Part shown: in pieces, positions 4,375 through 64,000 of the stretch
How the letters are laid out: each line of letters starts with the position of its first letter
Numbering within the stretch: the first letter of the stretch is position 1
Assembly: GCA_963841565.1 (NCBI GenBank)
Contig: CAWJCY010000007.1
Location: 32,001-96,000, forward strand
Reading direction: 5' to 3'
DNA length: 64,000 bases
Origin: an uncultured Nitrososphaerales archaeon
GTDB lineage: Archaea > Thermoproteota > Nitrososphaeria > Nitrososphaerales > Nitrososphaeraceae
The notes under the pieces: generated by a model
The model's database searches: none
The model's input: the letters and a program-made list of their open reading frames with translations, nothing else
What the model was told of the DNA's origin: nothing
Position numbers and translations under genes: made by a program

Positions 4375-4401
4375 TTAAGCATTAAAAAATAGGTGATTTT
4401 G

Positions 4402-4920
4402 TTGAAGGGTAGTAATTATAGAGAAATCCGTGGTATGCCATACGTAAGAAAGGAATACATCAGAGGCAAGCCTCAACTGAAGATTGCTAGATTCTCGTCA
4501 GGAGAATTTAGGGACGATTATGATTACAAGATTGAGCTCGTGGTAGACGAAAGGCGCCAGATCAGGCATAACGCATTGGAGGCAGCTAGACTTGGTGCTA
4601 ACAAGACGTTGGCATCTGCAGGTGAGACGAGTTTCTTTTCAAGTATAAAGGTATATCCTCACGTAGTTCTGCGTGAAAATAAGATGATTGCAACGGCAGG
4701 GGCTGATCGATTACAGGAGGGAATGAGAAGAGCCTTCGGCAAAGCAACAGGTCTAGCTGCTCGGGTCAAACCCGGAGACACTGTTTACGAGGCGTACGTT
4801 AGCGCAGAAAACCTCCAACTTGCTAAGCAGGCCTTAAGGATAGCTGCAGGAAAGCTTGGATGTCTAACTGTAACGAAATTGACCCAACTTCGTCAAAGCG
4901 AACCAGAGGAAGAAGAGTAG
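4402..4920 (+). CDS. rpl10e: 50S ribosomal protein uL16 (L10e)
   Basis: QIRHNALEAAR, YPHVVLRENKMIATAGADRLQEGMRRAFGK. Confidence 0.97.
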   Translation: MKGSNYREIRGMPYVRKEYIRGKPQLKIARFSSGEFRDDYDYKIELVVDERRQIRHNALEAARLGANKTLASAGETSFFSSIKVYPHVVLRENKMIATAGADRLQEGMRRAFGKATGLAARVKPGDTVYEAYVSAENLQLAKQALRIAAGKLGCLTVTKLTQLRQSEPEEEE

Positions 4921-27602: not shown

Positions 27603-28880
27603 CTAATTGGGGATACCCAATTCTTCAAAAGTATGTACCTTGACCGTAGATGGCTTCTTGCTCGCGGTGGTCCGATGGCCAACTATATATTCAATCCCTG
27701 CTCGATCTGCAACATCTATGAGCCTTTGAGTAACGATCCCGTCCAGAACAAGAAATTTTCCGCCTTCACTATCTCCTAGCTGTTTCACAATATCTGAAAC
27801 AGGTACCTTGACTAGGATCCTCATAGAATCGTCCAGTAGCACCGCTTCCAAAGTCTCATTTATTTCAGAAAACACGTTCTGCACCTTTAGAACCATCTCT
27901 TGGTTATGTTCTCCCTGCAAGATCTCCTTTCCTTCATTGTCAGCAATCTTAGTTGTACGCCCTCCATAGGCGTGAGGACCAGGTTCTGATTCATCTCCGT
28001 GTTTTCGATAATCGTATTTTGTATCCTGCGGCTGTTGGCTCGCAGTAGACTTGGGATGGTGTGCGATCGCAGGATGACTAACAGCTTCACGTAAAATCTC
28101 GGCAATTTCGAGGGGGGTGCAATCCTCAACTTCTCTCCCATTGGGAGCTCTGAGCACTTTATCTATCTTGACCAAACCATGCAGTTCCTTCAAAATAAGA
28201 TCTCCTGCCCTATCTCCGTCAAGAAATGCCACAACTCTTTTGCCTTCAGTTAAATTAATTATACTTTCATCGACTTTTGCTCCTTCTATTGCAATAGCGT
28301 TGTCGAAGCCAGCCCTAAGCAAGTTTATGACATCTGCTCTTCCTTCAACCAAAATAATCCAATCAGAATCAAAAACGCCTGTGCCACAAGCCAGCTGTGC
28401 TTTCCCAAATGCCGTGAGCTTACCAGGCTTGCTTGCATCATATACGTCTTTGAGCATTTCTTCCCCTTCGCTAATGGTCTTGGTTGCCCATTCTTGGACT
28501 ATCCTCTTTGCACGGTCTACGATAATCTTTTTCTTTATTGCTCTGATATCGTCTATGCCGACAAGGACGAACTTGGCTTGAAACGGACCTACCTTATCTA
28601 TACTTTCAATTGCCGCCGCAATCAACGCGGCAGTTGAGATATCAGTACTCATGGGTATGACAGCGTCTCCCTTCGCTATGTTAGATCTCGTATCAACATT
28701 TACCTCAATTCTTCCCACCTTTGAAACTTTCTGTAATTCATTCAGGTTCATCTCCGGCCCTAGAAGGCCTTCTGTCTGCCCAAAAATGGCGCCGATTATA
28801 TCCGCTTTCTCAACCAGTCCATCTACGTCGAATTTTAATTTAACATGATATTTAACAATACCTGTATTAGGCAATCTCAT
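27603..28880 (-). CDS. dnaG: Archaeal DnaG-like protein
   Basis: GAIFGQTEGLLG, ILVEGRADVINL, AFLDGDRAG, LVLDGIVTQRL. Confidence 0.96.
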   Translation of the reverse strand: MRLPNTGIVKYHVKLKFDVDGLVEKADIIGAIFGQTEGLLGPEMNLNELQKVSKVGRIEVNVDTRSNIAKGDAVIPMSTDISTAALIAAAIESIDKVGPFQAKFVLVGIDDIRAIKKKIIVDRAKRIVQEWATKTISEGEEMLKDVYDASKPGKLTAFGKAQLACGTGVFDSDWIILVEGRADVINLLRAGFDNAIAIEGAKVDESIINLTEGKRVVAFLDGDRAGDLILKELHGLVKIDKVLRAPNGREVEDCTPLEIAEILREAVSHPAIAHHPKSTASQQPQDTKYDYRKHGDESEPGPHAYGGRTTKIADNEGKEILQGEHNQEMVLKVQNVFSEINETLEAVLLDDSMRILVKVPVSDIVKQLGDSEGGKFLVLDGIVTQRLIDVADRAGIEYIVGHRTTASKKPSTVKVHTFEELGIPN

Positions 28881-29001
28881 AACCTCATTATTATTAAGTG
28901 AATGTTAGGTGAGCTGGCCAGAATATAAGTGCTTTGAAGGAACAAATTCTCGATTTACGATTCCATATTTTGTTTCCTTTGAGCAAGATAGAACTATAAT
29001 G

Positions 29002-29424
29002 TCAAGAATAATTAGGCAAAAACTTTGATCCCAACAAGTTCTGGTAGGATCCTATGTCCTCAATGTGACGAACTTTTCCATTCGTGATTTCACATAATTT
29101 CTTTTTGTAGGTTAGATTTACATTACTACCCCTTTGTTGAAGGAGAGACACTAGCCTGCTTGTCAAGTATTTTCCTGTTCGATCCATATCTAATAAAAGA
29201 ATAATCTTTTTATCCGTCATTTGATGACTATCGACAAAATCTAAAACCCCTTTGAATCTGTTATATTCAGTAACTTCACCAACAAACCCCAACTTTGTGA
29301 GAGCCTCAGAATCCCGCTTCCCTTCGACTACTATTATGGAACCGGTTTCTGACTCATGGTTTAAAGTGTGAATAAATTCATTAATCCTCCCAAGGACTGC
29401 TGAATCGATATTTCTGTAAACCAT
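29002..29424 (-). CDS. Small TOPRIM-domain protein
   Basis: IVVEGKRD, LLLDMDRTG. Confidence 0.85.
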   Translation of the reverse strand: MVYRNIDSAVLGRINEFIHTLNHESETGSIIVVEGKRDSEALTKLGFVGEVTEYNRFKGVLDFVDSHQMTDKKIILLLDMDRTGKYLTSRLVSLLQQRGSNVNLTYKKKLCEITNGKVRHIEDIGSYQNLLGSKFLPNYS

Positions 29425-36298: not shown

Positions 36299-36610
36299 TT
36301 ATCCTATATCTATGTGGACGGTATTTCTATGAGCACGAATAGACAGAGGCTTTCTCCCCTCATTAAGTATCATATATGCAGTCTTTTGAAGCCTTTCAAC
36401 GGATTCTTTGTCCGACATCGTTATGCTATGTGAACTATCATCATCTAGAACCAAAATTAACTCTTTCTCGCTTACGATGGCCACATGTTTGAGCGAGTTC
36501 TGTTCTCTATTTGGGGATAGTATCCACATCAGTTTCTCAGCTTCGTACTCGTCCTCACAATCGATATTTTCTGTGTCCCTAGAAGTGCTACTCAAAGGGG
36601 TTTTCCTCAT
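36299..36610 (-). CDS. Hypothetical protein downstream of trpS
   Basis: ORF from ATG 36610 overlapping the trpS end. Confidence 0.6.
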   Translation of the reverse strand: MRKTPLSSTSRDTENIDCEDEYEAEKLMWILSPNREQNSLKHVAIVSEKELILVLDDDSSHSITMSDKESVERLQKTAYMILNEGRKPLSIRAHRNTVHIDIG

Positions 36611-37770
36611 AAAGAAACAAATCGACTTGATTCCTTGCTTGATCTCTTCGCCTAGTAAACTCTGACATGAAGGACTTTGTCTGAGTGGTGAGATCGGATT
36701 TACATTCCCCACATAATAAATTACCTGTTCTACATTTTAGAGATCGTTCAAACGATTCCTTTCCATTGTCAAAGAAATGGCTCAGGTACCAAAACACTGG
36801 ACATGCATCTGGATCTCCTCCTAATATCCTTTGTAGAGCAACTGACGGTTGCCCTCCTGTGTACGCGCCTGAAATCTTGCTTTCAATCGTTTCTGGGTCG
36901 TCGGTTGTAAAAATAGCACCAGTAGGTTTTGAAGATGACATCTTACCATTCATTTCTAAACTTGGTACAAACTTACTGTGGACTTGTGCCGGTTTATAGT
37001 ATCCCATCTTCTCTGCTATGTCTCTTGTAATCCTCCAGTATGGATCTTGATCAATTGCGAGCAGGGATTAGCACGCGAGTAGGCTTCTTTTCGATCAAGG
37101 ATGGCAAAAAGCAAGGGGCAGCTTGAATAGCGGGAAACCCTATCATTCCTATATTAGACGATGGCTTAAACCCAAATACGGCTTTTGCAGTGGAAAAGGT
37201 TAACCTTTTTGAGATCTCTAGATAAAGAGGGTATAAAGTTTGGATATTTTTAGTATCAATAACAATTCGAGTCAGCGTGGGGTCAAATCCCATGGCTATG
37301 ACGTCAAGGATATTGTCGTACGCGTACTTCTCCACTTCTTGCAAGCTGAGTTGATGACTATAGAGAAATTTTTCGTCATCGGTAATCTGAAACAAGAGTC
37401 TGGATCCAAATGTATCTTGAAGATATTTTGTGAAAAACCACGGCATCAAGTGACCCATATGAACATGACCAGAAGGGCCTCTGCCGGTGTAAAGGTAGAA
37501 ATTTTCTCCATTTCCGTACGCGTCTAGTACTACGTCCAAGTCCCTGTGAGAAAAGAAGAAGCCACGTGATAAGAGAGGATGAACATTTCCGGAAAACTTT
37601 TGCAATTTCTCGATAATTTCAGGAGTAATTAATCGGGTGCCGAATTCTTGGACAATTTTATTGTAGTCAACAACACCGTCGACCTGCCACGGCGTCACAC
37701 TGTACTCTCTTTCTAAATTGTCTGCTTCATATCCTACTGATTCCTCGATTTCCTCATCCCGTTCATCCAT
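36588..37770 (-). CDS. trpS: Tryptophanyl-tRNA synthetase; apparent frameshift at ~37059
   Basis: VTPW, YTGRGPS..HMGH, TDDEKF, IDQDPYW, KMSSS. Confidence 0.95.
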
Positions 37771-37844: not shown

Positions 37845-39357
37845 ATGACTTATAAAGTAACTGCATTACATCCTATCGAGAAAAAGATTCTCCACCTCCT
37901 GGGTAAGGATGGCTCCCTTACAGTTGAAGCGTTGTCAGAGAAGAGCGACTTGACCATCGACCAGGTGAGGAGAGGAGTAGAACGGCTAAAATTCAAGCAG
38001 CTCATACTGATCACTCAAGATTCATCTATCTTCTTTGAGTTGGATGAGCGTGGGAAATCCGCCTTACTCAAAGGATTGCCTGAGAGAAGGTTGGTCAGTG
38101 CTATTCAGTTAGAGCCTGATAAAGGGATTGCAATGCTTGCAAAGACACAGGCGTTTGAGCGGGATGAGCTGGGTGCGGCTATTCGGGTTGCAAGGGATCA
38201 AAACCATTGGTTGCTTCCGGCTTCTGGTGATAAAAACAGATCTAATCTAAGAATTAGTCAATCAATATCAGAAACCTCTCCAGAAGAACAGGTTATAGAA
38301 CGATTCAGAAACGTACAGCGAATCTCTGAAAATGAATTAAATGACATTGAGAAGAAGGGTGTGGAGCTCCTCCTAAGGAGACCAAATTATCTAAGAAAGA
38401 TTCAACAACAAACTGTTACTATATCATTAACAGCAGTTGGGAGGTCGATGGTTGAAGAGATCACCATGCCTAAATCTAATAAAACAGAGTCCGTTAGATC
38501 AGAGACTAGAGCAGAAGACCGGCCAGAAAGTTTTGCAATAGACCTTGAAGCTGCAGTTAAGGTCGCGTCCCCAGGCAAAACGCACCCATTGACTGATTTA
38601 ATTGCAGAGATTAAAGAGATTTTCGTGAGCATGGGATTCACCGAGATAGCGGGTGACATCATCCAGACATCCTTTTGGAACTTTGATGCATTGTTTACGC
38701 TTCAGGACCACCCTGCCAGAGAAATGCATGATACATACTATCTTTCTGGGCTCAGGAATGTAAAGGAAATAGCGAGCAAAGAGCAGATCGCAAATGTTTC
38801 TAAAATACATAACAAAAATTCAATCAATGTCTGGGATGTTCGAGAGTCCAACCGCCTAGTACCTACGTACTCATACGACTCCGGTCACACTGAAATATCT
38901 AGCAGATAACCAACCTGATGAGGCAAAGCTTTTCTCGGTAGGGACTGTGTTTCGAAATGAAAAAGTAACAAAGGGTCACCTCTCTGAATTCTTTCAGATT
39001 GAAGGGGTAGTCACCAAGCCGAACGCCTCAGTTAGGGATCTAATGGGGTTACAAACGGAATTCTATCGCAAATTGGGAATCCAAAAAGTAAAGTTTTGGC
39101 CTACTTTCTTTCCATATACTGAACCATCTTTACAATCAATGGTATATATCGAAAAAGTCGACAAATGGTTGGAACTCTTTGGAATGGGAATATTTAGGGA
39201 TGAGGTCACCCTTCCAATGAAAATCAGAAATCCAGTTCTTGCTTGGGGAGGAGGGCTCGAGCGCTTGGCAATGTTACGACTAGGCATAGATGACATAAGA
39301 ACGCTTTACAGCAACAAGATCGAGTGGTTAAGGAGCGTTCCCAAATGCCAGTTATAG
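37845..39357 (+). CDS. pheS: Phenylalanyl-tRNA synthetase alpha subunit; apparent frameshift at ~38862
   Basis: FWNFDALF..QDHPAREMHDT, LRTHTT, FRNE, FFPYTEPS, GGGLERL. Confidence 0.95.
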
Positions 39358-41018: not shown

Positions 41019-41430
41019 GAAGACGGTTAAAAATGAGAACAACGAGCATGATTGTGTGAGTATTTTTAAGCGAGTAATAGACTATTTGAATTCTTTTGCA
41101 AAATCTAAGATCAGAAAGGAGGATTGTACTTGCTCAGATTTTATCCACCTAGTTTTTCAACATTTGTATTCAAAATTATTGGAATTTTCAACTAACTTGG
41201 TTAAATGGGTCTGTACTCTGACATAAATAAGAAATGGTATTGTGGCCATTTGTTATACTGTGAGATCCTCTCCTGGATACCTACTTCAACATCTTGTGAC
41301 TTTATGTTAACTATACATGTGAGGATAAGCCTTGATCTGGGACTTCTGAAATATTTTTTATGCAACATGATGTGACCCATCGCCTAGACACTAGTATTAT
41401 GCAAATATATACGTCTACAATCTCCCTTGT

Positions 41431-41520
41431 TATCCCCGTTAGAGAGTACGCTAGGAGGGAATACACATGAGTGTAACAGGCTACCCGTGAATAGTAGTGG
41501 GTCAGAGGCGGGGGACATTT
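41431..41520 (+). ncRNA. Candidate box H/ACA guide RNA
   Basis: Stem TCCCCGTT(41433-40)/GGCGGGGG(41507-14) directly followed by ACA(41515-17); internal pocket; upper stem with Kt-7-like GGA/GAA K-turn; AATATATA at 41404-41411. Confidence 0.55.
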
Positions 41521-41807
41521 TAACTATCCTTTGGATTACCTAAACTCGTCGATCATATTTTTTATAATGGATCTCGCTTCAGAAGAAATATTATAACCAG
41601 CTAGGACTTTGGTCGGTTCTGAAAGCAAGAGTCTTCTGAAATTTGGTTCACTCGCTGCCCTAAGAAGAATGTCGCTAACTATTTTTGCATCCCAGTTTCT
41701 AAATTCCAACCAGGATCATGCTGTATATGGAATCTTAATTTGTAGTTTTCTACCCACGATATATCACAAGAACATTATTATTCTTAAAATTTGATTCCGG
41801 ATAAGTA

Positions 41808-43115
41808 TTGCGACTGGTAGACCGGTTTAAATGGTCCAATAATGGCACAAGTAGAATCCAACCTCCAGAAAAGACCCTTCTCGCAGTGGAGGCGATCGCA
41901 GGAAAGATTGGGGTGACACGTATCGGCAACATAACCTATCTGGACAGACTCGGTATTCCCAATTATTCGGTTGTTCTGCCCGGTACAGAGGATTATATTT
42001 GGGTCTATAGCGGAAAGGGTTTTACCATGAAGCAGGCCCGGACAAGCGGCCTTATGGAAGCTGTAGAACGCTATTCTTCTTTGCCTAGCAGCTATGAACG
42101 TCCATTCATCAGAGATTCATATTTTGAGCTGTCAAAAAGGTATAACGTACTAAGTCCAGATGATGTTTGTGAACCCCTTTCTATTCAATATAAGAATGAT
42201 ATGATAATGGATTATGTTCAAGGCTTTGATCTGGTTTCTCATGAACAAATTCTAGTACCATCCGCTTTGGTCATGTTTAGGTACGCTCAGGGCGGGAAGG
42301 CTGTCAATCCGTTCTCATTCTCCCACACAAACGGATTAGCATCAGGAAATGTTTTGGAGGAAGCGATATGTCACGCTTTGTGTGAAGTCGTTGAGCGAGA
42401 TGCATCAAGTTTGGCTGACTTACGTTCGAGCGCCTTTCCCTTTCATTTTATAAAGATCCTCACGAATAAGTTTAAAGAGAGCGGGTACGAAATAAACGAA
42501 ATTCCTTCGGATAGTATGGTTGATGAACCAAATTTGTTTCCAATGCTCGATCTAGAGGGTGCTATCAATGAACCGGCGAGAAATTTAGTGAATAGATTTA
42601 AGGCTGCAAATATTTCCTTGATGGTTAAGGAGATTACAAGTGATGTGGGAATACCAACATTCAACGCTGCAAGCGTTGAATGGCTGACTCAGAATTACGG
42701 CTATCTTGCTGAAGGAACGGGTACGCACCCAGACGCCAGAATTGCACTGGTAAGGGCGATTACAGAACTTGCTCAGACTCGAGCGGCTAACATTCAAGGC
42801 GCTCGAGATGATCTTCGCAAAATTAACTATGTGGGTGAAAATTCAGAGGACAAGAGATCGTGGCAATTCATGAATTCTGATCGAAAGGTTAGTCTCTCTG
42901 AGATCGATAGCTACTATAATGAAAACATACTAGATGATATAAGGTTAATTCTTAATCATCTTAAAGTCGTGGGACTAAAGAGAGCCATTGTGGTGGATTT
43001 AACGGTCCCGTGGATAGGAATTCCGGTAGTACGGGCCATCGTACCAGGTTTGGAAACATTCAAGTTCACAAAATCTGTTATAGGTCAAAGGGCGAGGAAT
43101 TATTTCAAGATATGA
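41808..43115 (+). CDS. ycaO: YcaO-family protein (TfuA-associated, thioamide-forming type)
   Basis: GVTRIGNITYLDRLGIP, SGKG, MEAVER, TNGLASGN, EVVERDA, RAITELAQTR; no Pro-rich C-terminus. Confidence 0.92.
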   Translation: MRLVDRFKWSNNGTSRIQPPEKTLLAVEAIAGKIGVTRIGNITYLDRLGIPNYSVVLPGTEDYIWVYSGKGFTMKQARTSGLMEAVERYSSLPSSYERPFIRDSYFELSKRYNVLSPDDVCEPLSIQYKNDMIMDYVQGFDLVSHEQILVPSALVMFRYAQGGKAVNPFSFSHTNGLASGNVLEEAICHALCEVVERDASSLADLRSSAFPFHFIKILTNKFKESGYEINEIPSDSMVDEPNLFPMLDLEGAINEPARNLVNRFKAANISLMVKEITSDVGIPTFNAASVEWLTQNYGYLAEGTGTHPDARIALVRAITELAQTRAANIQGARDDLRKINYVGENSEDKRSWQFMNSDRKVSLSEIDSYYNENILDDIRLILNHLKVVGLKRAIVVDLTVPWIGIPVVRAIVPGLETFKFTKSVIGQRARNYFKI

Positions 43116-43771
43116 AAAACGTAATTGTTTTTGTTGGTCCTAGTTTAGATACTGAAAAGGCACGAAAGGTATTGGAAGCCGACTATAGACCTCCAGCCAA
43201 GAAAGGAGATTTGATCAGATTGATTATGTCGTTAGACGATAATGAGACTGTGGTAGGACTAATTGATGGATATTTCTTGCTTGACTATCCGCCCACACCT
43301 ATTGAAGTTTATCAGTTGGTCGTCAGACACAATACTGTAGTAATAGGATCATCAAGCATAGGGGCTCTGCGAGCCGTTGAACTAGAAAAATTTGGGATGA
43401 TTGGCGTGGGAAAAATATTCCAATTATTCAAGCACGGGAGAATAGACGCGGACGACGAAGTAGCTGTAACCTTTTCTCACGACTTGTACCACCTTCAGTC
43501 TGAAGCAATGATAGATATTCGGTATAACTTATACCTATCACTGAAGAAAGGGTTTATCGATAAGGAAACCAAAAAAACTCTCACTAAGGTCGCCAAGGAT
43601 ATCTATTTCCCATTTCGTACATACCAAAATATCATTGAAGAAACCATCAGGCGATATCCTCAGCTGGATGATAAGGCAAGACGCTTCGAAGCCTATATCC
43701 TTAGAAATAGGAAGAGTCTAAAAGAGAGGGATGCTTTGAAACTTATTGAGTATATCAGAGATATGATTTAG
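43112..43771 (+). CDS. tfuA: TfuA-like protein
   Basis: VFVGPSL, PPAKKGD, IDGYF, GSSSIGALRAVEL, DDEVAV, LKERDA; ATGA overlap with ycaO. Confidence 0.92.
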   Translation: MKNVIVFVGPSLDTEKARKVLEADYRPPAKKGDLIRLIMSLDDNETVVGLIDGYFLLDYPPTPIEVYQLVVRHNTVVIGSSSIGALRAVELEKFGMIGVGKIFQLFKHGRIDADDEVAVTFSHDLYHLQSEAMIDIRYNLYLSLKKGFIDKETKKTLTKVAKDIYFPFRTYQNIIEETIRRYPQLDDKARRFEAYILRNRKSLKERDALKLIEYIRDMI

Positions 43772-44010
43772 AAATGTTCAAAAGACGGTATGAATATGTT
43801 TTTTTCAATTTGATGCAGGTCATAACTCTTAGCTCCGCCCACGAGCAGATTACAGGTGAGTGTATCAACCTGATCTATTTGCAATTTAGACCTCTAATGA
43901 TAGGACAAAAGGAAAATATTCGAAGCCCAGTCGAATCGGTATAATTTTTGAATACATGCACACTACAAATTTATCAGAAAGAAGATAGTCTATGATAAAA
44001 TCTCGAGGTA

Positions 44011-45207
44011 TTGGAACACATGCAGCCCATTGAACTGATATCACTTTATACAATTGGTTTTATCATGTTTGGAGTCTTGCTCACTTGGGCGCGGTTGTTA
44101 ACGTATTGCAGGAGATCATTGAAATATTCGCCGAAACTTGAAGACATAAGAAAACTAAATCTTAATCCTATGCCTCGGGTCAGCATAATTGTACCTGCAT
44201 TGAATGAGGAGAATTATATAGGCAGGTGCCTACAAAGCCTTCTCGCTCAGGATTATCATAATCTTGAGATAATATCCATAGATGATGACTCAACAGATAG
44301 TACTCTTATGACCATGAAGTCAGTAGCATCAATAGACCAAAGAATTCGCGTAATCGAGGCTGGGCAGAGGCCAAGTGGCTGGGTGGGGAAAAATTGGGCA
44401 TGCTTTATTGGTTATAATAATTCGACGGGAGATATTCTTATCTTTACTGATGCAGATACTGTTCACTCAGAACAGACTGTTACCTTAGCAGTAAACCATA
44501 TGTTGCAAGAGAACCTCTCCGCGATTACGGCAATTCCTAGGTTGATGTCTGAAGATTTTCTAACTAGCGTCACATTACCTCTACTCTCAGTCTTCTTACA
44601 AACCAAGTTTTCTCCTCTGAAAGTAAACGATTCTGCAAACAAGTTGGGGTATTTTTTTGGAAGTTTTTTTGCTATTATACGAGGCCACTATGAGTCCATT
44701 GGTACTCACAAAGAAGTGCGCACGGAAATAATTGAAGATGGTGCAATTGGGTCGCTTGTAAAAAAAAGAGGGATAAAGATGAAAATGTTTAGAGGAGAAA
44801 ATTGTGTTGATGCATTGTGGGCAAGGGACCGACGAGGATTGTGGAATGGTCTTTTGCGACTGTTGGTTCCTATGCATAGGGAACAAGGTAAGAAGACAGT
44901 TCCGATGGTGATTGCAATTGCCTTTTTAATGTTATTTCCGTTCATTGCTTTACCAGCAGGAATTTATTTTGCATACCGAGTGGAAACCAGCTTGCTAGGT
45001 ATTTTTCTTGCAAGCGCCGCACTGGGTACTTTGTGCATCATGATGATAACAACTGTGCTCATCCTGTCCCAATCGATTAAGACCAGTAAGAAATTAGCCC
45101 TCGGGTCGCTAGTAGGGGCAACCGTCATAACATTGTCTTTTTTTGTTTCCCTGCTTAGAGCAAACAAGCCTCAGTCATTTGCCTGGAAAGGAAGAACGTA
45201 CGTGTAG
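44011..45207 (+). CDS. Membrane GT2 glycosyltransferase (HpnB/CrtQ-like)
   Basis: VSIIVPALNEE, DDDSTD, GWVGKNWA, FTDAD, IIED, C-terminal TMs, WKGR. Confidence 0.9.
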   Translation: MEHMQPIELISLYTIGFIMFGVLLTWARLLTYCRRSLKYSPKLEDIRKLNLNPMPRVSIIVPALNEENYIGRCLQSLLAQDYHNLEIISIDDDSTDSTLMTMKSVASIDQRIRVIEAGQRPSGWVGKNWACFIGYNNSTGDILIFTDADTVHSEQTVTLAVNHMLQENLSAITAIPRLMSEDFLTSVTLPLLSVFLQTKFSPLKVNDSANKLGYFFGSFFAIIRGHYESIGTHKEVRTEIIEDGAIGSLVKKRGIKMKMFRGENCVDALWARDRRGLWNGLLRLLVPMHREQGKKTVPMVIAIAFLMLFPFIALPAGIYFAYRVETSLLGIFLASAALGTLCIMMITTVLILSQSIKTSKKLALGSLVGATVITLSFFVSLLRANKPQSFAWKGRTYV

Positions 45208-45262: not shown

Positions 45263-46450
45263 ATGCGATGTGATAACGATCTGGAGCATGTATCCGAGTT
45301 ATTAGATGAATTAAAGCATTCTTCTTACCATATCAGTGGTGAGCAGGCTCTGTCGTTATTCTACGATGCTAGGTTAGAACAACTAGTTGAGTGTTCTTCA
45401 TATTTGCGCAATAAATTTAAACCCTCAATCTTGACTTATTCTCGAAAGGTCTTTGTAAATCTTGTAAATCTGTGTCGCGATACATGTTCCTACTGCACGT
45501 ACAAAAAGGAACCTGGAGAGACTACAATTTCAATGCTCGATCCCGAAAAGGTTTTGGCTATAGTGGAGGTTGCAAAGCGACTGAAATGTACTGAGGCATT
45601 AATCGTTACAGGGGAAAGACCAGAAGTTCGATACCCAGAGGTACGCAGTTGGCTTCAAAAAATGGGGTTCTCTACATTGCCTGAGTATATCGGTGAAATA
45701 AGTGAAATGATTATCAAGAAAACAGGATTACTGCCTCACACTAATGCTGGGAGCCTCTCCAAACAAGAGTTACTCGCTCTAAGGGAAAACAATGCTAGCA
45801 TGGGATTGATGTTAGAATCCTCAAGTATTAGACTATCGAGTCGAGGGATGCCTCACGAGAGGGCACCAAGCAAACATCCTAGGGTAAGAATAAAATCGCT
45901 GACTTCATGTGGTGAGCTAAATATCCCAACTACGACTGGACTACTTTTAGGTATTGGGGAGACGCCTGAGGAAATTATTGAATCGTTGCTTCTTATTAAA
46001 TCGCTACATGAGTCATTCGGGCATATACAGGAAGTAATAATGCAAAACTTTTCACCGAAGGATGGAACATCAATGTCTGATCATCCAGCCCCCTCTAGGG
46101 AATATTTCATGAGAGCAGTAGCGGTAGCTAGAATTTTAATGCCCAAAATGAACATTCAGGTACCTCCAAATCTCAACGAATCCCTAGAAGACTATATTGG
46201 CGTGGGTATTAATGATTGGGGTGGAATATCGCCTCTTACCATCGATTACGTCAATCCAGAACACCCTTGGCCCCCTATAGAACATGTAAATCGGGTGTGT
46301 TTGAAGAAGGGATTTCAACTAAAGGCCCGATTGCCTGTATATCCAGAGTTTTTGAAAAATGGTCGGTCTTATGTTTCCCATCACGTCAGTTCTTCAATTG
46401 AAGCACTCTCTGATGACGTAGGTTTAGTAAAGGAGTCATACCTGATTTGA
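45263..46450 (+). CDS. cofG: FO synthase subunit CofG (radical SAM)
   Basis: TYSRKVF, CRDTCSYC, LPHTNAG, HIQEVIMQNF, QVPPNL, DWGGISP. Confidence 0.93.
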   Translation: MRCDNDLEHVSELLDELKHSSYHISGEQALSLFYDARLEQLVECSSYLRNKFKPSILTYSRKVFVNLVNLCRDTCSYCTYKKEPGETTISMLDPEKVLAIVEVAKRLKCTEALIVTGERPEVRYPEVRSWLQKMGFSTLPEYIGEISEMIIKKTGLLPHTNAGSLSKQELLALRENNASMGLMLESSSIRLSSRGMPHERAPSKHPRVRIKSLTSCGELNIPTTTGLLLGIGETPEEIIESLLLIKSLHESFGHIQEVIMQNFSPKDGTSMSDHPAPSREYFMRAVAVARILMPKMNIQVPPNLNESLEDYIGVGINDWGGISPLTIDYVNPEHPWPPIEHVNRVCLKKGFQLKARLPVYPEFLKNGRSYVSHHVSSSIEALSDDVGLVKESYLI

Positions 46451-47710
46451 ATATAGAAAGCCTTCTCAAGACGGTTGACCCTCTTATTTCAGAGGCTTTG
46501 AATTTGGCAATTGATGGAAAGGAGATATCTGTTGACCAGGCAGTGGAATTGTTCGATACTAGCGGGATTGAAATGAACTTATTGACCTCTATTGGAGACG
46601 AGTTGCGAAGAAGAGCATGTGGAAACGTTGTAACGTATGTCATCAACAGAAACGTGAACTTCACTAATGTATGTATAAAGCGGTGTGGTTTTTGCGCATT
46701 TAGCCGTGATTTCAGACAGGAAGAAGGTTACTTCTTGCCTGTCGAGGAAGTTGTTCGACGAGCTGTAGAAGCCTATCGGTTGGGTGCCACTGAGGTCTGC
46801 ATCCAGGCAGGTCTAGCCCCAAATATGGAGGGTTCTCTTTATCCAGATATCTGTAAAGCAATTAAGCGTGAAATACCGGATATCCACATTCATGGGTTTT
46901 CCCCTGAAGAAGTATTATATGGAGCCAGAATGAGTAACAATAGTGTTAGAGATTTCTTATCTTGGCTTAAAGAATCTGGTGTAGGAAGTCTACCTGGAAC
47001 ATCAGCAGAGATACTGGATCAAGAAGTTAGAGACTTAATTTCTCCAGGTCGAATATCTGTTAATGATTGGATAGATGTCATTAAGACAGCCCATAGATTA
47101 GGCATTCCTACTACCTCAACTATCATGTACGGACATATTGAATCCAATTTCCACAAGGCCAACCATATTGACATATTACGTAAGATCCAGAAGGAAACTG
47201 GTGGCATTACAGAGTTCGTCCCTCTTAAGCTTCGTATATCAGGAAGCACCTATGCACAGCCGCATTAATTTGAAGAACATGCGTGAAGCAGGAGCCGGAG
47301 CAACAGATATTGTAAAAATGTACTCCGTTTCTAGACTGATGCTTCATAACTATGTGAAGAATATACAGGTTTCGTGGGTAAAAGAAGGCTCAAAAATGTC
47401 TCAATTTCTTTTGTGCGCTGGGGCAAACGATTTTGGTGGTACACTTATAAATGAAAGTATCTCCACATCTGCTGGTTCAATTCATGGTCAAATTATGAGA
47501 CCTCGGGAAATAAGAACCCAAATCAAGGGTTTAGGACGGATCCCTGCTCAGCGCAATACATTATATGAGATATTACAAATAAACTCGGGAGCCGAAGAGG
47601 ATTGCCAGACCGAACTTGATCAAGTAAACACCGAGGATTTTGGATCCTATAGAGAGCTTATCAAGCTTGACAAATATAGGTACAAACATTCTTTACGAGA
47701 TCGCAATTAG
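46447..47710 (+). CDS. cofH: FO synthase subunit CofH; apparent frameshift at ~47227
   Basis: NRNVNFTNVCIKRCGFC, PGTSAEIL, TIMYGH, NIQVSWVK, GANDFGGTL. Confidence 0.93.
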
Positions 47711-48085: not shown

Positions 48086-49873
48086 GTGATACAGAAACCT
48101 TTAGGAAAGCAGATGGAGACGCAATTCAACTTGGCCCGCCTTAAATGGCAAACATTGCAACACAATGGAATTGCATTTCCTTCAGAATACAAACCGAGGG
48201 GCATTACTATTGCCATTCTCGGAGAACAGTATCTGTTGAATGCTGCCCAAGAAGAATTGATCTATGCTTGGTCCAGAAAGAAGGATACTCATTACGTCAA
48301 GGATACCGTGTTCGAATCAAATTTCATTATTGATCTAAGAAGCGTACTTCCTCCTAAGTTCGGATCTGTCAGTAAGATGTCCGAATTGGATCTGTCGAAT
48401 GCTTACCGTCTAGTAGATGAAGAGAACAGATTGAAGGTAGAAGAGAAAGAGCGGATTAGAAATCTACCTCGAGATGAAAGAAGGCGTATATCTAATTCCA
48501 AGAAAATTGAGCGAGAACGAATTCGTTCGATTTATGGTTTGGCAACTGTTGATGGTGCGACGGTTGAAATAGCGAATTGGCTGGTGGAACCTCCAGGCCT
48601 ATTCATGGGTAGAGGACAACATCCACTGCGAGGCCGATGGAAACCCAGGGTACAGCCACAAGATGTAATTTTAAACCTTGGAGAAAACGCTGAAGTCCCT
48701 GAAGGAAACTGGAAGGCAATTGTTAATGATCATACCTCAACCTGGCTCGCGACATGGATGGAAAAACTAACTGGCAAAAGAAAGTACATGTGGCTTCATG
48801 ATTCATCCACCCTACGTCAGAACAGTGATAAGGAAAAATACGATAGAGCTGATGTACTAGGGAAGCATATTGACAAAGTTCACGAAAGGATAGTGAGCAA
48901 GATGATTAATTCGAAAGATTTGAGTCAGAAGAAAATATCAACTGTCTGCTACTTGATTAATAAGCTTGCAATGAGAGTTGGAGATGAAAAAGATCCTGAC
49001 GAGGCGGACACTGTAGGCGCGTCGACGTTACGGGTGGAACATATCAGGTTTCCAGTTCGTCAAGGAGTAAAAAGTATAGAATTCAATTTTCTAGGAAAAG
49101 ACAGCGTCCCCTGGCAAAAAAGCTTGGAAGTGAATTCGCGCGATACAGAAGCACTACTTACGAACATAGAATTATTCATGAAGGCCAAGAAACCTAACGA
49201 ACAGATTTTCGATGGGATAACCTCTGCGAAGGTAAATTCATTTCTTAGAACAATCGATAAAAACAGGGTTCCCGGTTTGACTGCAAAGGTCTTCAGAACC
49301 TTCATAGCGACTCAAATTGTTAAAGAAGCTCTTGCACGTCCTCCAATCAAAGTAAACAAGGAGTCATCGGAAATGGAAAAAATATACATGGCCAAAAAGG
49401 CGAATCTCGTTGCTGCTATTACTTGTAACCATAAAAAGGGAATTGATTCAAACAATCCTGCTAGCAAGCAAGCCCTAGAGAGGTTTCAAAAATCAGTGGA
49501 AAAGAAAGAAGAGGTTATCAGAAAAATTGAGAACGATATAGCCTCTCATAAATGGAAGACTGATTTACAAAAGAAAAGAATGATGGACAGGCTGGATAAG
49601 GTCCAAATAACGTTGCAACTACAAAAGGAAACTCGTGATTATAACCTTGGGACTTCACTTAGAAATTATATAGACCCAAGAGTCGTGAAATCATGGATGA
49701 ACCATGTGGGTCTTGATTGGAAGAGGCTCTTTACAGCAACCTTGCAACGTAAATTTAAATGGGTTGAAATATATTCTGATGCCGAGTTGCGACAATATCT
49801 CCCTGCAGTCGACGAAATTGGGTACCGTAAATCCGAGACCGTGATTCAAGAGGAAAGTTTGACTAAAAGTTAA
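48086..49873 (+). CDS. Eukaryote-like DNA topoisomerase IB
   Basis: KWQTLQHNG, EPPGLFMGRG.HP, RVGDEK..DTVG, FLGKDS, AKVFRT, CNH, GTSLRNYIDPR. Confidence 0.96.
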   Translation: MIQKPLGKQMETQFNLARLKWQTLQHNGIAFPSEYKPRGITIAILGEQYLLNAAQEELIYAWSRKKDTHYVKDTVFESNFIIDLRSVLPPKFGSVSKMSELDLSNAYRLVDEENRLKVEEKERIRNLPRDERRRISNSKKIERERIRSIYGLATVDGATVEIANWLVEPPGLFMGRGQHPLRGRWKPRVQPQDVILNLGENAEVPEGNWKAIVNDHTSTWLATWMEKLTGKRKYMWLHDSSTLRQNSDKEKYDRADVLGKHIDKVHERIVSKMINSKDLSQKKISTVCYLINKLAMRVGDEKDPDEADTVGASTLRVEHIRFPVRQGVKSIEFNFLGKDSVPWQKSLEVNSRDTEALLTNIELFMKAKKPNEQIFDGITSAKVNSFLRTIDKNRVPGLTAKVFRTFIATQIVKEALARPPIKVNKESSEMEKIYMAKKANLVAAITCNHKKGIDSNNPASKQALERFQKSVEKKEEVIRKIENDIASHKWKTDLQKKRMMDRLDKVQITLQLQKETRDYNLGTSLRNYIDPRVVKSWMNHVGLDWKRLFTATLQRKFKWVEIYSDAELRQYLPAVDEIGYRKSETVIQEESLTKS

Positions 49874-57304: not shown

Positions 57305-58317
57305 TCATCTCCATGTTACATTCACAGAGTCTAAACGCCAAGCTTGATCGATAAAACCATTTTCTGGCGCTACACCAACTTTCGAATAAACATGATCAAT
57401 TAAGCTTGTTAACGCAATTTGGACGCCATTGTCTCCCGCATAACGGATTGGACAGATATGCAGTTTAGTACCGTGTCTTGCGCAAACATAATTTAACATG
57501 TCTGCTAGACGTCTATTAGCTGCTACTCCTCCAACTACTATTACTTCCTCTTTGTTCGTGAATGAAATAGCTCTCTCAGTGGCCTCGGCCAAAATTGCAA
57601 ATGCCGTTTCCTGTAGAGAGTAACATGTATTGCCGATGTCAAATCTCCCGTCTTTGGTACGTTTTATTGCTGCTGTAAGCAACCCACTGAAGGAAACATC
57701 ATTTCCTTTAATCGTGTATGGTATCCAAGAATACTCTTTTCTGGAATTTGTTGCTAACCTTTCAATCATCGATCCACAAGGGGATGAAAAACCTAATGAC
57801 CTGCCAAATTGATCAAGTAGTTGACCTATGGTGATGTCCAACGTTTCTCCGAATATTCTCCATCTTTTATTAAAATACAAGAGAATCATCGTGTGTCCGC
57901 CTGAAACCAGAACGACCAAAGGATCCCTAGCACCCGTCAGACAAGCCCCAAGTTCAATGTGAGCTAATCCATGATTGACAGGCACCAAGGGTTTTCTATA
58001 ATAAGTGGACAGCAGGCGAGCTGAGAACAGACTCCTATCCTAAGGCATGGTCCCAGCCCGGGACCTGCAGAATAACCTATTATATCTATTTGTTCCATCT
58101 TTAAACAAGAATGCGCAATTGCTTCTTTCAAGATTCTGCTGCACACATTCGCGTGATGTCTGGATGCCTCTCTTGGGTGTATCCCGGAACCTTCTGGAGG
58201 CCTGTAAGACGACCGTACATCTGACAATATCCTAAAAGATCCTTTCCTTTTCCCTTTCATTTCTGCAATGGCACAACCGAAAGTGTGAGCTGTACTTTCT
58301 ATTCCTAAAGCTAACAA
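57305..58317 (-). CDS. kae1: KEOPS t6A synthase Kae1; apparent indels at ~58022 and ~58031
   Basis: LGIESTAHT, GIHPREA, GPGLGPCL, VNHGLAHIE, SGGHT, GETLDI, GDNGVQIA. Confidence 0.94.
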
Positions 58318-62678: not shown

Positions 62679-64000
62679 TTACTCTCTTCTTCCAATCAGA
62701 TTTGAACGTGAGAAGACCCTTTCTACATCTTCAGCCTTCATTAAGCCTTCTTCTACTACTATGTCCTTCACATTTCTGTTTGTTTCCAATGCCTTCTTGT
62801 ATATTTCGGATGCCTTTACATAACCTATGTAAGGGTTTAGAACAGTCACGAGTACCGGGCTTCTATATACATACCTAGAAAGCTTATCTACATTCGCTTG
62901 AATGCCCTCGATTAAATTGGCTGTGAATACTGGTAGAAAATTCCTGAGCATATCCATAGAATCTAAAACCCATTTCAACATTCCTGGCAGCATAACATTC
63001 AACTCAAACTGACCTGCTTGCGACGCCATCGTTACCGCCAAATCATTTCCAATAACATTAAAGCAAATCATGTTAAGACACTCGGCCAAAGACGGGTTAA
63101 TCTTACCTGGCATAATTGAAGAACCTGCATGTACTGCAGGGATCACTATTTCAGCGAATCCCGCTGTAGGTCCAGACGCCATAAGCCTCAAATCATTCGC
63201 TAGCTTGATTAGTTCTACCGCGAGGTTTCTGATTGACGAAGAATAACATGTAACGTCAAATCGACTCTGGAGTGCAAAGTAAAGGTTTTCAGATGATATT
63301 ATGTTTAGCCGAGATATCCCCCTAAGATGGCGAATTGCTACTTCTCGGTATCCGGCCGGCGAATTCAGCTCCACTACCCACTGCCGTACCTCCTAAGGCA
63401 ACAGCATACAGGTTTTCTGATGCTTGCACTATTTTCTGCCTTGCAATTTCAATCGAAGAATAATATCCGCTAAATTCATCCCCTAGTGTGATGGGGAGTG
63501 CATCCATCAAGTGGGTTCTCCCAATTTTCATAATATCTTCAAATTCTACACTCTTGTTTTTCAGAGACTTGATTAACAGATCAATGGCCTGCAAGAAACT
63601 ATTTAGACCAAGTAATATCGACAGATGCATTGCTGTGGGGAATGTATCGTTACTTGATTGAGACATGTTCACATGATCGTTAGGGTTGATAATCTCATAC
63701 TTCCCTCTGTCCTCGCCAATTGTTTCTAGAGCAACATTTGCGATTACCTCGTTAACGTTCATGTTAAAAGCTGTTCCAGCACCTGAATTAATTGGCTCAA
63801 TGATGATCTGATCAAAGAACTCGCCTGAAAGTAATTTATCGCAAGCCTTTACGATTGCGTTGGAAATTTCCTCAGGAAGAACTCCCAGTTCGCGATTGGA
63901 CAAAGCCGCACACTTTTTGATCATAAAGTATGCTCTAATTAAATCCGGGTGTGATCTTTGCCCTGTAATATTATACTGATTGCTGGCTCTTACAGTAAAG
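62679..64000 (-). CDS. Aspartase / class II fumarase family lyase (5' end off window); apparent frameshift at ~63366
   Basis: NMNVNEVIAN, PNDHVNMSQSSND, KIGRTHLMDA, GSSIMPGKINP. Confidence 0.93.

Follow-up and report, generated by a model that had tools for sequence, protein, structure and literature searches.

A conserved NHLP-like small protein encoded beside ycaO-tfuA in Nitrososphaeraceae as a candidate substrate for thioamidation

Which protein or peptide does a YcaO-TfuA enzyme pair act on in an archaeon outside the methanogens? The question is raised by a stretch of 64,000 nucleotides from an uncultured Nitrososphaerales archaeon (assembly GCA_963841565.1, contig CAWJCY010000007.1, positions 32,001 to 96,000; hereafter the window, with positions counted from its first letter), in which a ycaO gene is followed by tfuA. 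A first-pass annotation, made from the letters of the window alone, had described the pair as an orphan thioamidation module of an ammonia oxidiser, with a target inferred to be encoded in trans. The label of ammonia oxidiser is drawn from relatives, the best loci belonging to the Nitrososphaeraceae, and no amo gene is present in the window. Ammonia-oxidising archaea are known to lack MCR, and thioamides in proteins are known in two cases only, MCR and the ribosomal protein uL16.

The presence of YcaO-TfuA in ammonia oxidisers is itself already published: the YcaO homologues of ammonia-oxidising archaea fall in the methanogen YcaO clade (Nayak 2017), and eight TfuA clusters are recorded in Thaumarchaeota, with Nif11-like precursors bearing Gly-Gly motifs in some of the bacterial TfuA clusters and, within the available text sections, no description of a thaumarchaeal peptide (Malit 2021). 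None of the searchable papers names a target for the pair in ammonia-oxidising archaea, and literature searches, in which papers on NHLP, thioamides, and YcaO were judged by title and abstract, returned none linking an NHLP-like gene to YcaO of these organisms. In the window and many of its relatives, a conserved small gene, here named pep, lies directly upstream of ycaO and is divergent from it; its product (PEP) is predicted to bind YcaO and is tentatively put forward as the most likely substrate. As a conserved candidate partner, encoded in cis and with predicted binding to the enzyme, PEP would provide YcaO-TfuA with a directly testable target.

A conserved small gene linked to ycaO-tfuA

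The gaps that flank the pair (789 bp upstream and 239 bp downstream; Table 1) have the sizes given in the first-pass annotation (790 and 240 bp), which saw no convincing precursor peptide in them. The upstream gap, however, holds pep, and pep is a real gene. A search of a protein collection returned 26 homologues of 47–79 aa and 64–96% identity, 18 of them exactly 57 aa long like PEP, and PEP also matches a protein Atlas cluster of 574 members, all archaeal. Against eight relatives, the codon-position differences number 65, 55, and 158 for the first, second, and third positions, respectively, and this dominance of third-position changes indicates purifying selection on a coding sequence. The TTG start of pep is kept in all of the relatives' loci that carry the gene (35/35, see below). 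An alignment of 17 sequences shows a conserved AT-rich TATATA-like block at a distance of ~27–35 nt from the start of pep, and this block, together with the position of the region between pep and ycaO, suggests that the region is presumably a shared or back-to-back promoter. A second copy of pep was not detected in the window, with hmmsearch returning a single match at E ≤ 10.

Several other small open reading frames (ORFs) in the two gaps (41056–41226, 41201–41380, 41205–41375, 41311–41466, and 41384–41518 upstream; 43774–43944 and 43886–44053 downstream) were considered as genes and rejected as proteins, because their conservation is at the level of DNA, with tblastn matches limited to close relatives and the same on both strands.

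A genome scan with a YcaO alignment identified 266 relatives, and neighbourhoods were compared for the best 80 of the 266, all from the Nitrososphaeraceae and at 58–94% identity; the comparison of neighbourhoods that the first-pass annotation had proposed across the Nitrososphaerota was thus made within one family. tfuA lies directly 3' of ycaO in 80/80 loci. PEP, as found with a profile search, is directly upstream of and divergent from ycaO in 35 of the 80 loci, as it is in the window, and in 33 of these 35 the gap between the two genes is 87–126 bp. An unrelated gene of ~120 aa occupies the upstream position in 38 loci, neither gene is present in three, and in the remaining four the upstream sequence is too short to judge. 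The 45 loci scored as PEP-negative gave no PEP homologue at E ≤ 10 in the ±6 kb around ycaO.

On a midpoint-rooted FastTree phylogeny of 81 YcaO sequences, the PEP-less loci with a judgeable upstream sequence form one derived clade (43 of 81 rows, support 98) mostly labelled as Nitrososphaera sp., while PEP is present in every YcaO lineage outside of this clade, on both sides of the root. A single change of state is sufficient to explain the distribution. Amongst the PEP-bearing lineages the outer flanks are variable: PheRS-beta may be adjacent, 2.6–2.9 kb away, or absent within 6 kb, the downstream GT2-CofG-CofH genes may be adjacent, displaced, or absent, and the genes inserted in the flanks are of unrelated housekeeping types. 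The pep-ycaO-tfuA trio has stayed whole through three or more different rearrangements that involve both of its outer flanks. An internal control is provided by an RNA-like element in the upstream gap (see below), which goes with PheRS-beta where PheRS-beta and ycaO part, while PEP goes with ycaO. A three-gene unit is supported because the trio stays together while its outer flanks vary, and the label of orphan is contradicted by the conserved pep beside ycaO.

In the Nitrososphaera clade (38 loci, L016–L079; e.g., L079:5611–5970, + strand), a conserved protein of ~120 aa takes the place of PEP. Of the 34 copies extracted, 28 are co-directional with ycaO and six are on the opposite strand, four of these being divergent with a gap of ~100 bp and the other two having ~450–580 bp. 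No Pfam or NCBIfam match past cut-off was obtained for this PEP-replacing gene (130 aa), with one of the two copies scanned giving weak matches (E = 0.036 and 0.081). The structural model (pLDDT, predicted local distance difference test, 91.5; Foldseek matches at E ≥ 0.02) looks like a winged helix plus a CxxC...CxxC zinc ribbon, with a KKK tail; on this model, an analogue of PEP appears less likely than a regulator, and the protein may regulate ycaO-tfuA. A PEP subfamily (P0153-type) considered as relocated Nitrososphaera copies was also set aside, as its named matches are to Candidatus Nitrosopolaris.

Enzyme type, PEP family, and predicted docking

YcaO matches the Pfam YcaO domain over its full length and well above the gathering score (PF02624, residues 68–416 on model positions 1–325 of 325; E = 1.6e-71, 241.7 bits vs. 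25.7), which places it in the YcaO superfamily, and TfuA matches PF07812 (E = 6.3e-34, 116.8 bits vs. 30). The first-pass annotation of the pair is borne out in part. The ycaO stop and tfuA start overlap in an ATGA at 43112–43115, the C-terminus of YcaO (...GQRARNYFKI) has no Pro-rich tail, and Pfam scans of the 68 larger and 34 small ORFs of the window returned no transporter, protease, ThiS, or MCR domain. The claim of intact ATP-binding motifs agrees with two ExxER motifs (E84/E87/R88 and E193/E196/R197) that are invariant in 30/30 aligned sequences, the residues of which we take to be the ATP/Mg binders. ycaO is read from a TTG start (41808–41810), with a TTG at the conserved position in most loci, and this long start is supported because N-terminal residues (K8, W9, S15, R16, P19, and T23) are kept in relatives. 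Weak TTG start codons, those of pep and ycaO, thus lie on either side of the short divergent region that presumably holds the promoter or promoters, which is an unusual combination.

The best NCBIfam models for both proteins are equivalogs for the thioamidation of the McrA glycine in methanogens, TIGR03266 for YcaO (289.2 bits, cut-off 365) and NF033432 for TfuA (208.9 bits, cut-off 235.2), and as both scores are under the curated cut-offs neither protein is assigned as a McrA-thioglycine equivalog. The best PDB matches are Methanocaldococcus MJ1094 for YcaO (6pe3, E = 5.3e-42) and the TfuA structure 6xp8 for TfuA (E = 1.1e-30). Azoline-forming YcaO enzymes have a Pro-rich (PxPxP) C-terminus and an E1-like or dehydrogenase partner, and no such partner domains were identified in the window ORFs or the flanks of five loci. 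Collectively, these matches support a TfuA-associated, thioamide-forming type closest to the methanogen McrA enzymes, in line with the enzymology proposed in the first-pass annotation, and by homology the chemistry would be the formation of a thioamide. The methanogen pair has the same ycaO-tfuA gene order and presumably the same ATP- and sulfide-dependent thioamide chemistry. Unlike that pair, the genes in the window score under the equivalog cut-offs, occur without an MCR domain amongst the 68 larger and 34 small window ORFs, have a divergent NHLP-like neighbour gene, and encode a YcaO with an insert. In the HMMER alignment to MJ1094, YcaO residues 207–248 face chain residues 187–194 only, leaving ~34 extra residues.

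The similarity of PEP to known families is weak and of one kind. PEP matches the model for the Os1348 family NHLP clan (NF038399; E = 1.1e-4, 22.2 bits, cut-off 40), the Pfam family Frankia_peptide (E = 1.4e-3), and TIGR03793 (leader_NHLP, 77 model positions; 13.1 bits vs. a cut-off of 50.9). When 27 PEP members were scanned singly (E ≤ 0.1), matches were obtained to NF038399 in all 27, TIGR03793 in 21, TIGR04351 (putative TOMM peptide) in 20, and nitrile hydratase alpha in seven. Similarity to a segment of nitrile hydratase alpha, a trait of the NHLP family, is also seen with a profile of 36 PEP sequences, for which the PDB matches include alpha chains of nitrile hydratase (E = 3.9e-5 for the best) and, at E = 3.3e-3, the chain 9cjx_A (‘NHLP leader peptide family natural product’). 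An exhaustive search of 1.84 billion representatives with the PEP profile gave 76 matches at E ≤ 0.001 that fall into three groups: close relatives, distant proteins of 57–61 aa with the same architecture, and longer NHLP-like proteins whose C-terminal tails are rich in Gly or Cys and which resemble classical precursors.

These similarities, with every match to an NHLP-family model below threshold, suggest that PEP belongs to the NHLP-like fold group used as leaders by the precursors of RiPPs (peptides made by the ribosome and modified after translation), yet is no classical precursor. With the NHLP/Nif11 precursors, and in particular the short Os1348 NHLP clan and Franean1_4349 families, PEP shares the motif A-x-x-[DE]-P-x-F-[KR]-x-x-L-L and a helical fold; it differs in its sub-cut-off scores, its length (57 aa, shorter than the leaders of the 77-position model), the lack of a Gly-Gly motif and a core, and its archaeal origin. 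Separately, several distant matches of the profile (P0183, P0219, P0209, P0210, P0221, and P0177/P0188/P0208/P0211/P0212/P0220) have poly-Gly tails, Cys-rich tails, or a common ...DIRI/DIRY C-terminus and, judged by sequence, look like uncharacterised families of RiPP precursors.

A complex of YcaO (30-row alignment) and PEP (30-row alignment, 29 rows used) was predicted alongside three controls. The PEP-YcaO pair scored 0.76 compared to 0.01 for the best of the controls, with the runs agreeing in ≥93% of contacts and a partner pLDDT of ≥86. Of 157 solved complexes, 116 reach the mark of 0.76, as do two of 215 mismatched pairs, counts that are only a rough guide as alignments made here were used for the window pair. 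The confident interface sets PEP residues 4–29 and 44–56 against YcaO residues 211–242 and 434, and within it the conserved A-S-E-P-x-F-R helix of PEP contacts a conserved F-V-D-D-P in YcaO (residues 237–241). The model thus supports the docking of PEP on the insert that MJ1094 lacks. We know of no solved NHLP-YcaO complex, and so it seems unlikely that the score was reached from the memory of the prediction model.

Relaxed constraint on the insert was not seen in the PEP-less clade, where the majority fraction is 0.81 for the insert and 0.89 for the rest of the protein, compared to 0.61 and 0.76, respectively, in the PEP group, and the comparison is uninformative.

Weighing PEP against other targets

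The reading favoured here, with a probability of roughly 0.4, is that pep, ycaO, and tfuA form a three-gene module with PEP as the most likely substrate of an ATP- and TfuA-dependent thioamidation. pep and the ycaO-tfuA operon would be transcribed divergently from the ~100-bp region between them. PEP, with the NHLP fold as a recognition handle, would dock via the A-S-E-P-x-F-R helix onto the YcaO insert (~207–248), YcaO would activate a backbone amide with ATP, and TfuA would supply sulfide equivalents, the source of which is probably a ThiS-type thiocarboxylate with its gene elsewhere; Rice 2026 (PMC13063428) ascribes such a role to TfuA, with a ThiS-type thiocarboxylate as the source. With no ThiS- or MoaD-like sulfur carrier detected by Pfam amongst the 34 small and 68 larger window ORFs, the sulfur donor would either be encoded elsewhere or be free sulfide. 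We infer that the modification would be a backbone thioamide on PEP itself, and as there is no Gly-Gly site, protease, exporter, or signal-like feature, the product would probably be a small thioamidated protein that stays within the cell and not a secreted peptide.

A conventional biosynthetic cluster does not describe the locus. As in the TfuA-YcaO RiPP clusters (thioamitides, thiovarsolins, and thioamidated thiopeptides), the pair is beside a small gene-encoded candidate substrate. Unlike in those clusters, no protease, transporter, or extra tailoring enzyme was found in the window or in the variable flanks of five loci, the flanks vary by lineage and encode housekeeping-type proteins, and the candidate substrate is an NHLP-fold protein without a cleavable boundary between leader and core.

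Several observations weigh against PEP as the substrate. In NHLP-type RiPP precursors a Gly-Gly motif, at which the leader is cleaved, precedes the core peptide, and no Gly-Gly motif occurs in any of 36 aligned PEP sequences, PEP itself has no Cys and one Gly, and it ends 5–12 residues past the NHLP-matched region with no obvious core. All matches of PEP to NHLP families are below the curated cut-offs. The AlphaFold2 model of PEP (pLDDT 88) is a compact four-helix protein, and a Foldseek search of the PDB with it returned nothing at E ≤ 0.001, the best match being to the C-terminal portion of DesB, a gallate dioxygenase (E = 0.42). The ExxER residues lie outside the confident interface with YcaO, and the complex model therefore speaks to docking and not to placement in the active site or catalysis. 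Adjacency within a single family, the Nitrososphaeraceae, could be inherited synteny. Finally, YcaO-TfuA and the insert are retained in the Nitrososphaera clade (43 of 81 YcaO rows) with no PEP beside them, and so PEP is not obligatorily linked to the enzyme, which may have another target.

Some of these same observations would fit a different role for PEP, that of a stand-alone, leader-like subunit bound to the YcaO insert, where it would activate the enzyme or direct it to its target, with the thioamide going onto another protein encoded elsewhere. The model places folded PEP on the insert and away from ExxER, PEP has a confident compact fold and neither a core nor a Gly-Gly motif, and the persistence of YcaO-TfuA and the insert in the Nitrososphaera clade without an adjacent PEP fits a conserved target in trans. 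According to Rice 2026 (PMC13063428), both of the proteins proven to be substrates of a YcaO enzyme, MCR and uL16, likewise have their genes away from ycaO. Such a role would be a somewhat unlikely one on balance: no candidate target in trans was found, and residues 55–56 of the PEP C-terminus touch the C-terminus of YcaO (residue 434) in the model, so that the PEP tail could sit near the active site. Moreover, no YcaO is known to us to have a stand-alone leader subunit in nature, and the literature searches brought up no such case. If PEP were such an adaptor, it would represent a leader peptide that is naturally provided in trans.

The pair might instead be a functional orphan, as the first-pass annotation had it, acting on some protein or peptide encoded in trans, with PEP as a mere syntenic neighbour of unrelated role. 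All 80 loci come from one family, in which adjacency could be inherited, the tree calls for one change of state and no independent gains, the NHLP matches are sub-threshold, and in the benchmark figures of the prediction tool seven of 44 blind-picked neighbours pass the complex test. Against this stand the survival of the trio through the rearrangements of both outer flanks, the score of 0.76 compared to the 0.01 of the best control, and the recurrence of an NHLP-like protein beside YcaO as a RiPP pattern (TIGR04351 being a model for a putative TOMM peptide), and an unrelated PEP is considered unlikely. A target encoded in trans is possible, given the Nitrososphaera clade, but the conclusion that the target must be so encoded overlooks PEP, a candidate encoded in cis.

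A specific target in trans proposed in the first-pass annotation, uL16, finds no support. The uL16 gene is indeed in the window (4393–4917), though 37 kb from ycaO, and uL16 is thioamidated by a YcaO in Pseudomonadota (PMC13063428). The enzymes responsible there belong to another YcaO subfamily, for which the same source describes acidic proteins with a tetratricopeptide repeat (TPR) region, of 150 residues in the E. coli enzyme (EcYcaO), and TfuA never nearby (Rice 2026). In contrast, the YcaO of the window has 435 aa with no TPR domain by Pfam, a computed isoelectric point of 5.98 compared to 4.4 for EcYcaO, an adjacent TfuA, and a score of 26.5 bits against the 700-bit cut-off of the model for uL16-modifying YcaO (NF040716), making modification of uL16 by this enzyme highly improbable. 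There are parallels nonetheless: the partner recognised by EcYcaO is a folded protein and not a linear leader, as is predicted for PEP here, and in silico complex prediction was also used for finding the substrate of EcYcaO (Rice 2026).

Returning to PEP as a substrate modified by YcaO-TfuA, both the class of substrate and the way in which YcaO recognises it would be new, in a group of nitrifiers of global importance. It is conceivable, with odds somewhat short of even, that PEP is the physiological substrate, in which case a thioamidated NHLP-fold protein of 6.6 kDa, recognised by a lineage-specific insert of YcaO rather than an RRE domain, would be the third thioamide-bearing protein class after MCR and uL16 and an evolutionary bridge between the recognition of RiPP leaders and the modification of folded proteins. 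As a bolder extension, the thioamide might give PEP a soft-metal (copper) site in organisms with a copper-dependent energy metabolism.

Other features of the window

Table 1. Positions of the features discussed, numbered from the first letter of the window.
Feature	Position	Strand	Description
pep	41536–41709	−	57 aa, NHLP-clan-like four-helix protein; TTG start 41707–41709, stop 41536–41538; candidate substrate or leader-like partner of YcaO
Intergenic region	41710–41807	.	98 bp, pep start to ycaO start, divergent; presumed shared or back-to-back promoter region
ycaO	41808–43115	+	435 aa, TTG start; TfuA-associated YcaO, putative ATP-dependent backbone amide activator (ORF and Pfam)
ycaO insert	42426–42551	+	Codons 207–248; insert relative to methanogen YcaO; predicted PEP docking surface (alignment to MJ1094 and complex model)
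tfuA	43112–43771	+	219 aa; start overlaps ycaO stop (ATGA); ORF and Pfam PF07812
Upstream gap	41019–41807		789 bp
Downstream gap	43772–44010		239 bp
RNA-like element	41432–41517	+	86 nt, non-coding
Split-gene stretches	37845–39354; 36591–37770; 46447–47707; 57308–58317; 62682–63924; 27606–29424		Window ORFs
DNA topoisomerase IB	48086–49870	+	Eukaryote-type

The RNA-like element in the upstream gap, with a TATA-like block at ~41403–41412, is near-invariant in close relatives and recognisable across several genera of the Nitrososphaeraceae (21 distinct copies), always just downstream of PheRS-beta. The closing stem (CCCCGU/GCGGGG) is invariant, an internal hairpin (UACAC/GUGUA) has a loop that varies, and 15 of 16 aligned copies have an ACA end, followed in the window and its closest relatives by a T-run. 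The element resembles an archaeal guide RNA of the H/ACA type; it has no Rfam match, the fold of the single sequence is no better than that of shuffles (z = −0.65), and only one covarying pair was found.

Several housekeeping genes of the window (PheRS-alpha, TrpRS, CofH, Kae1/TsaD, and fumarase, with a Toprim/primase gene as a possible further case) are each broken into two ORFs that lie side by side or overlap. In relatives PheRS-alpha is a single ORF, with 502 aa in locus L073 and 504 aa in L012, and in L012 and L036 it extends up to the edge of the locus. Indel errors in the assembly of the window are thereby suggested, with pseudogenes being less likely; the ORFs of pep, ycaO, and tfuA are intact. 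The window also encodes a eukaryote-type DNA topoisomerase IB, which fits an origin from the Nitrososphaerota (Thaumarchaeota).

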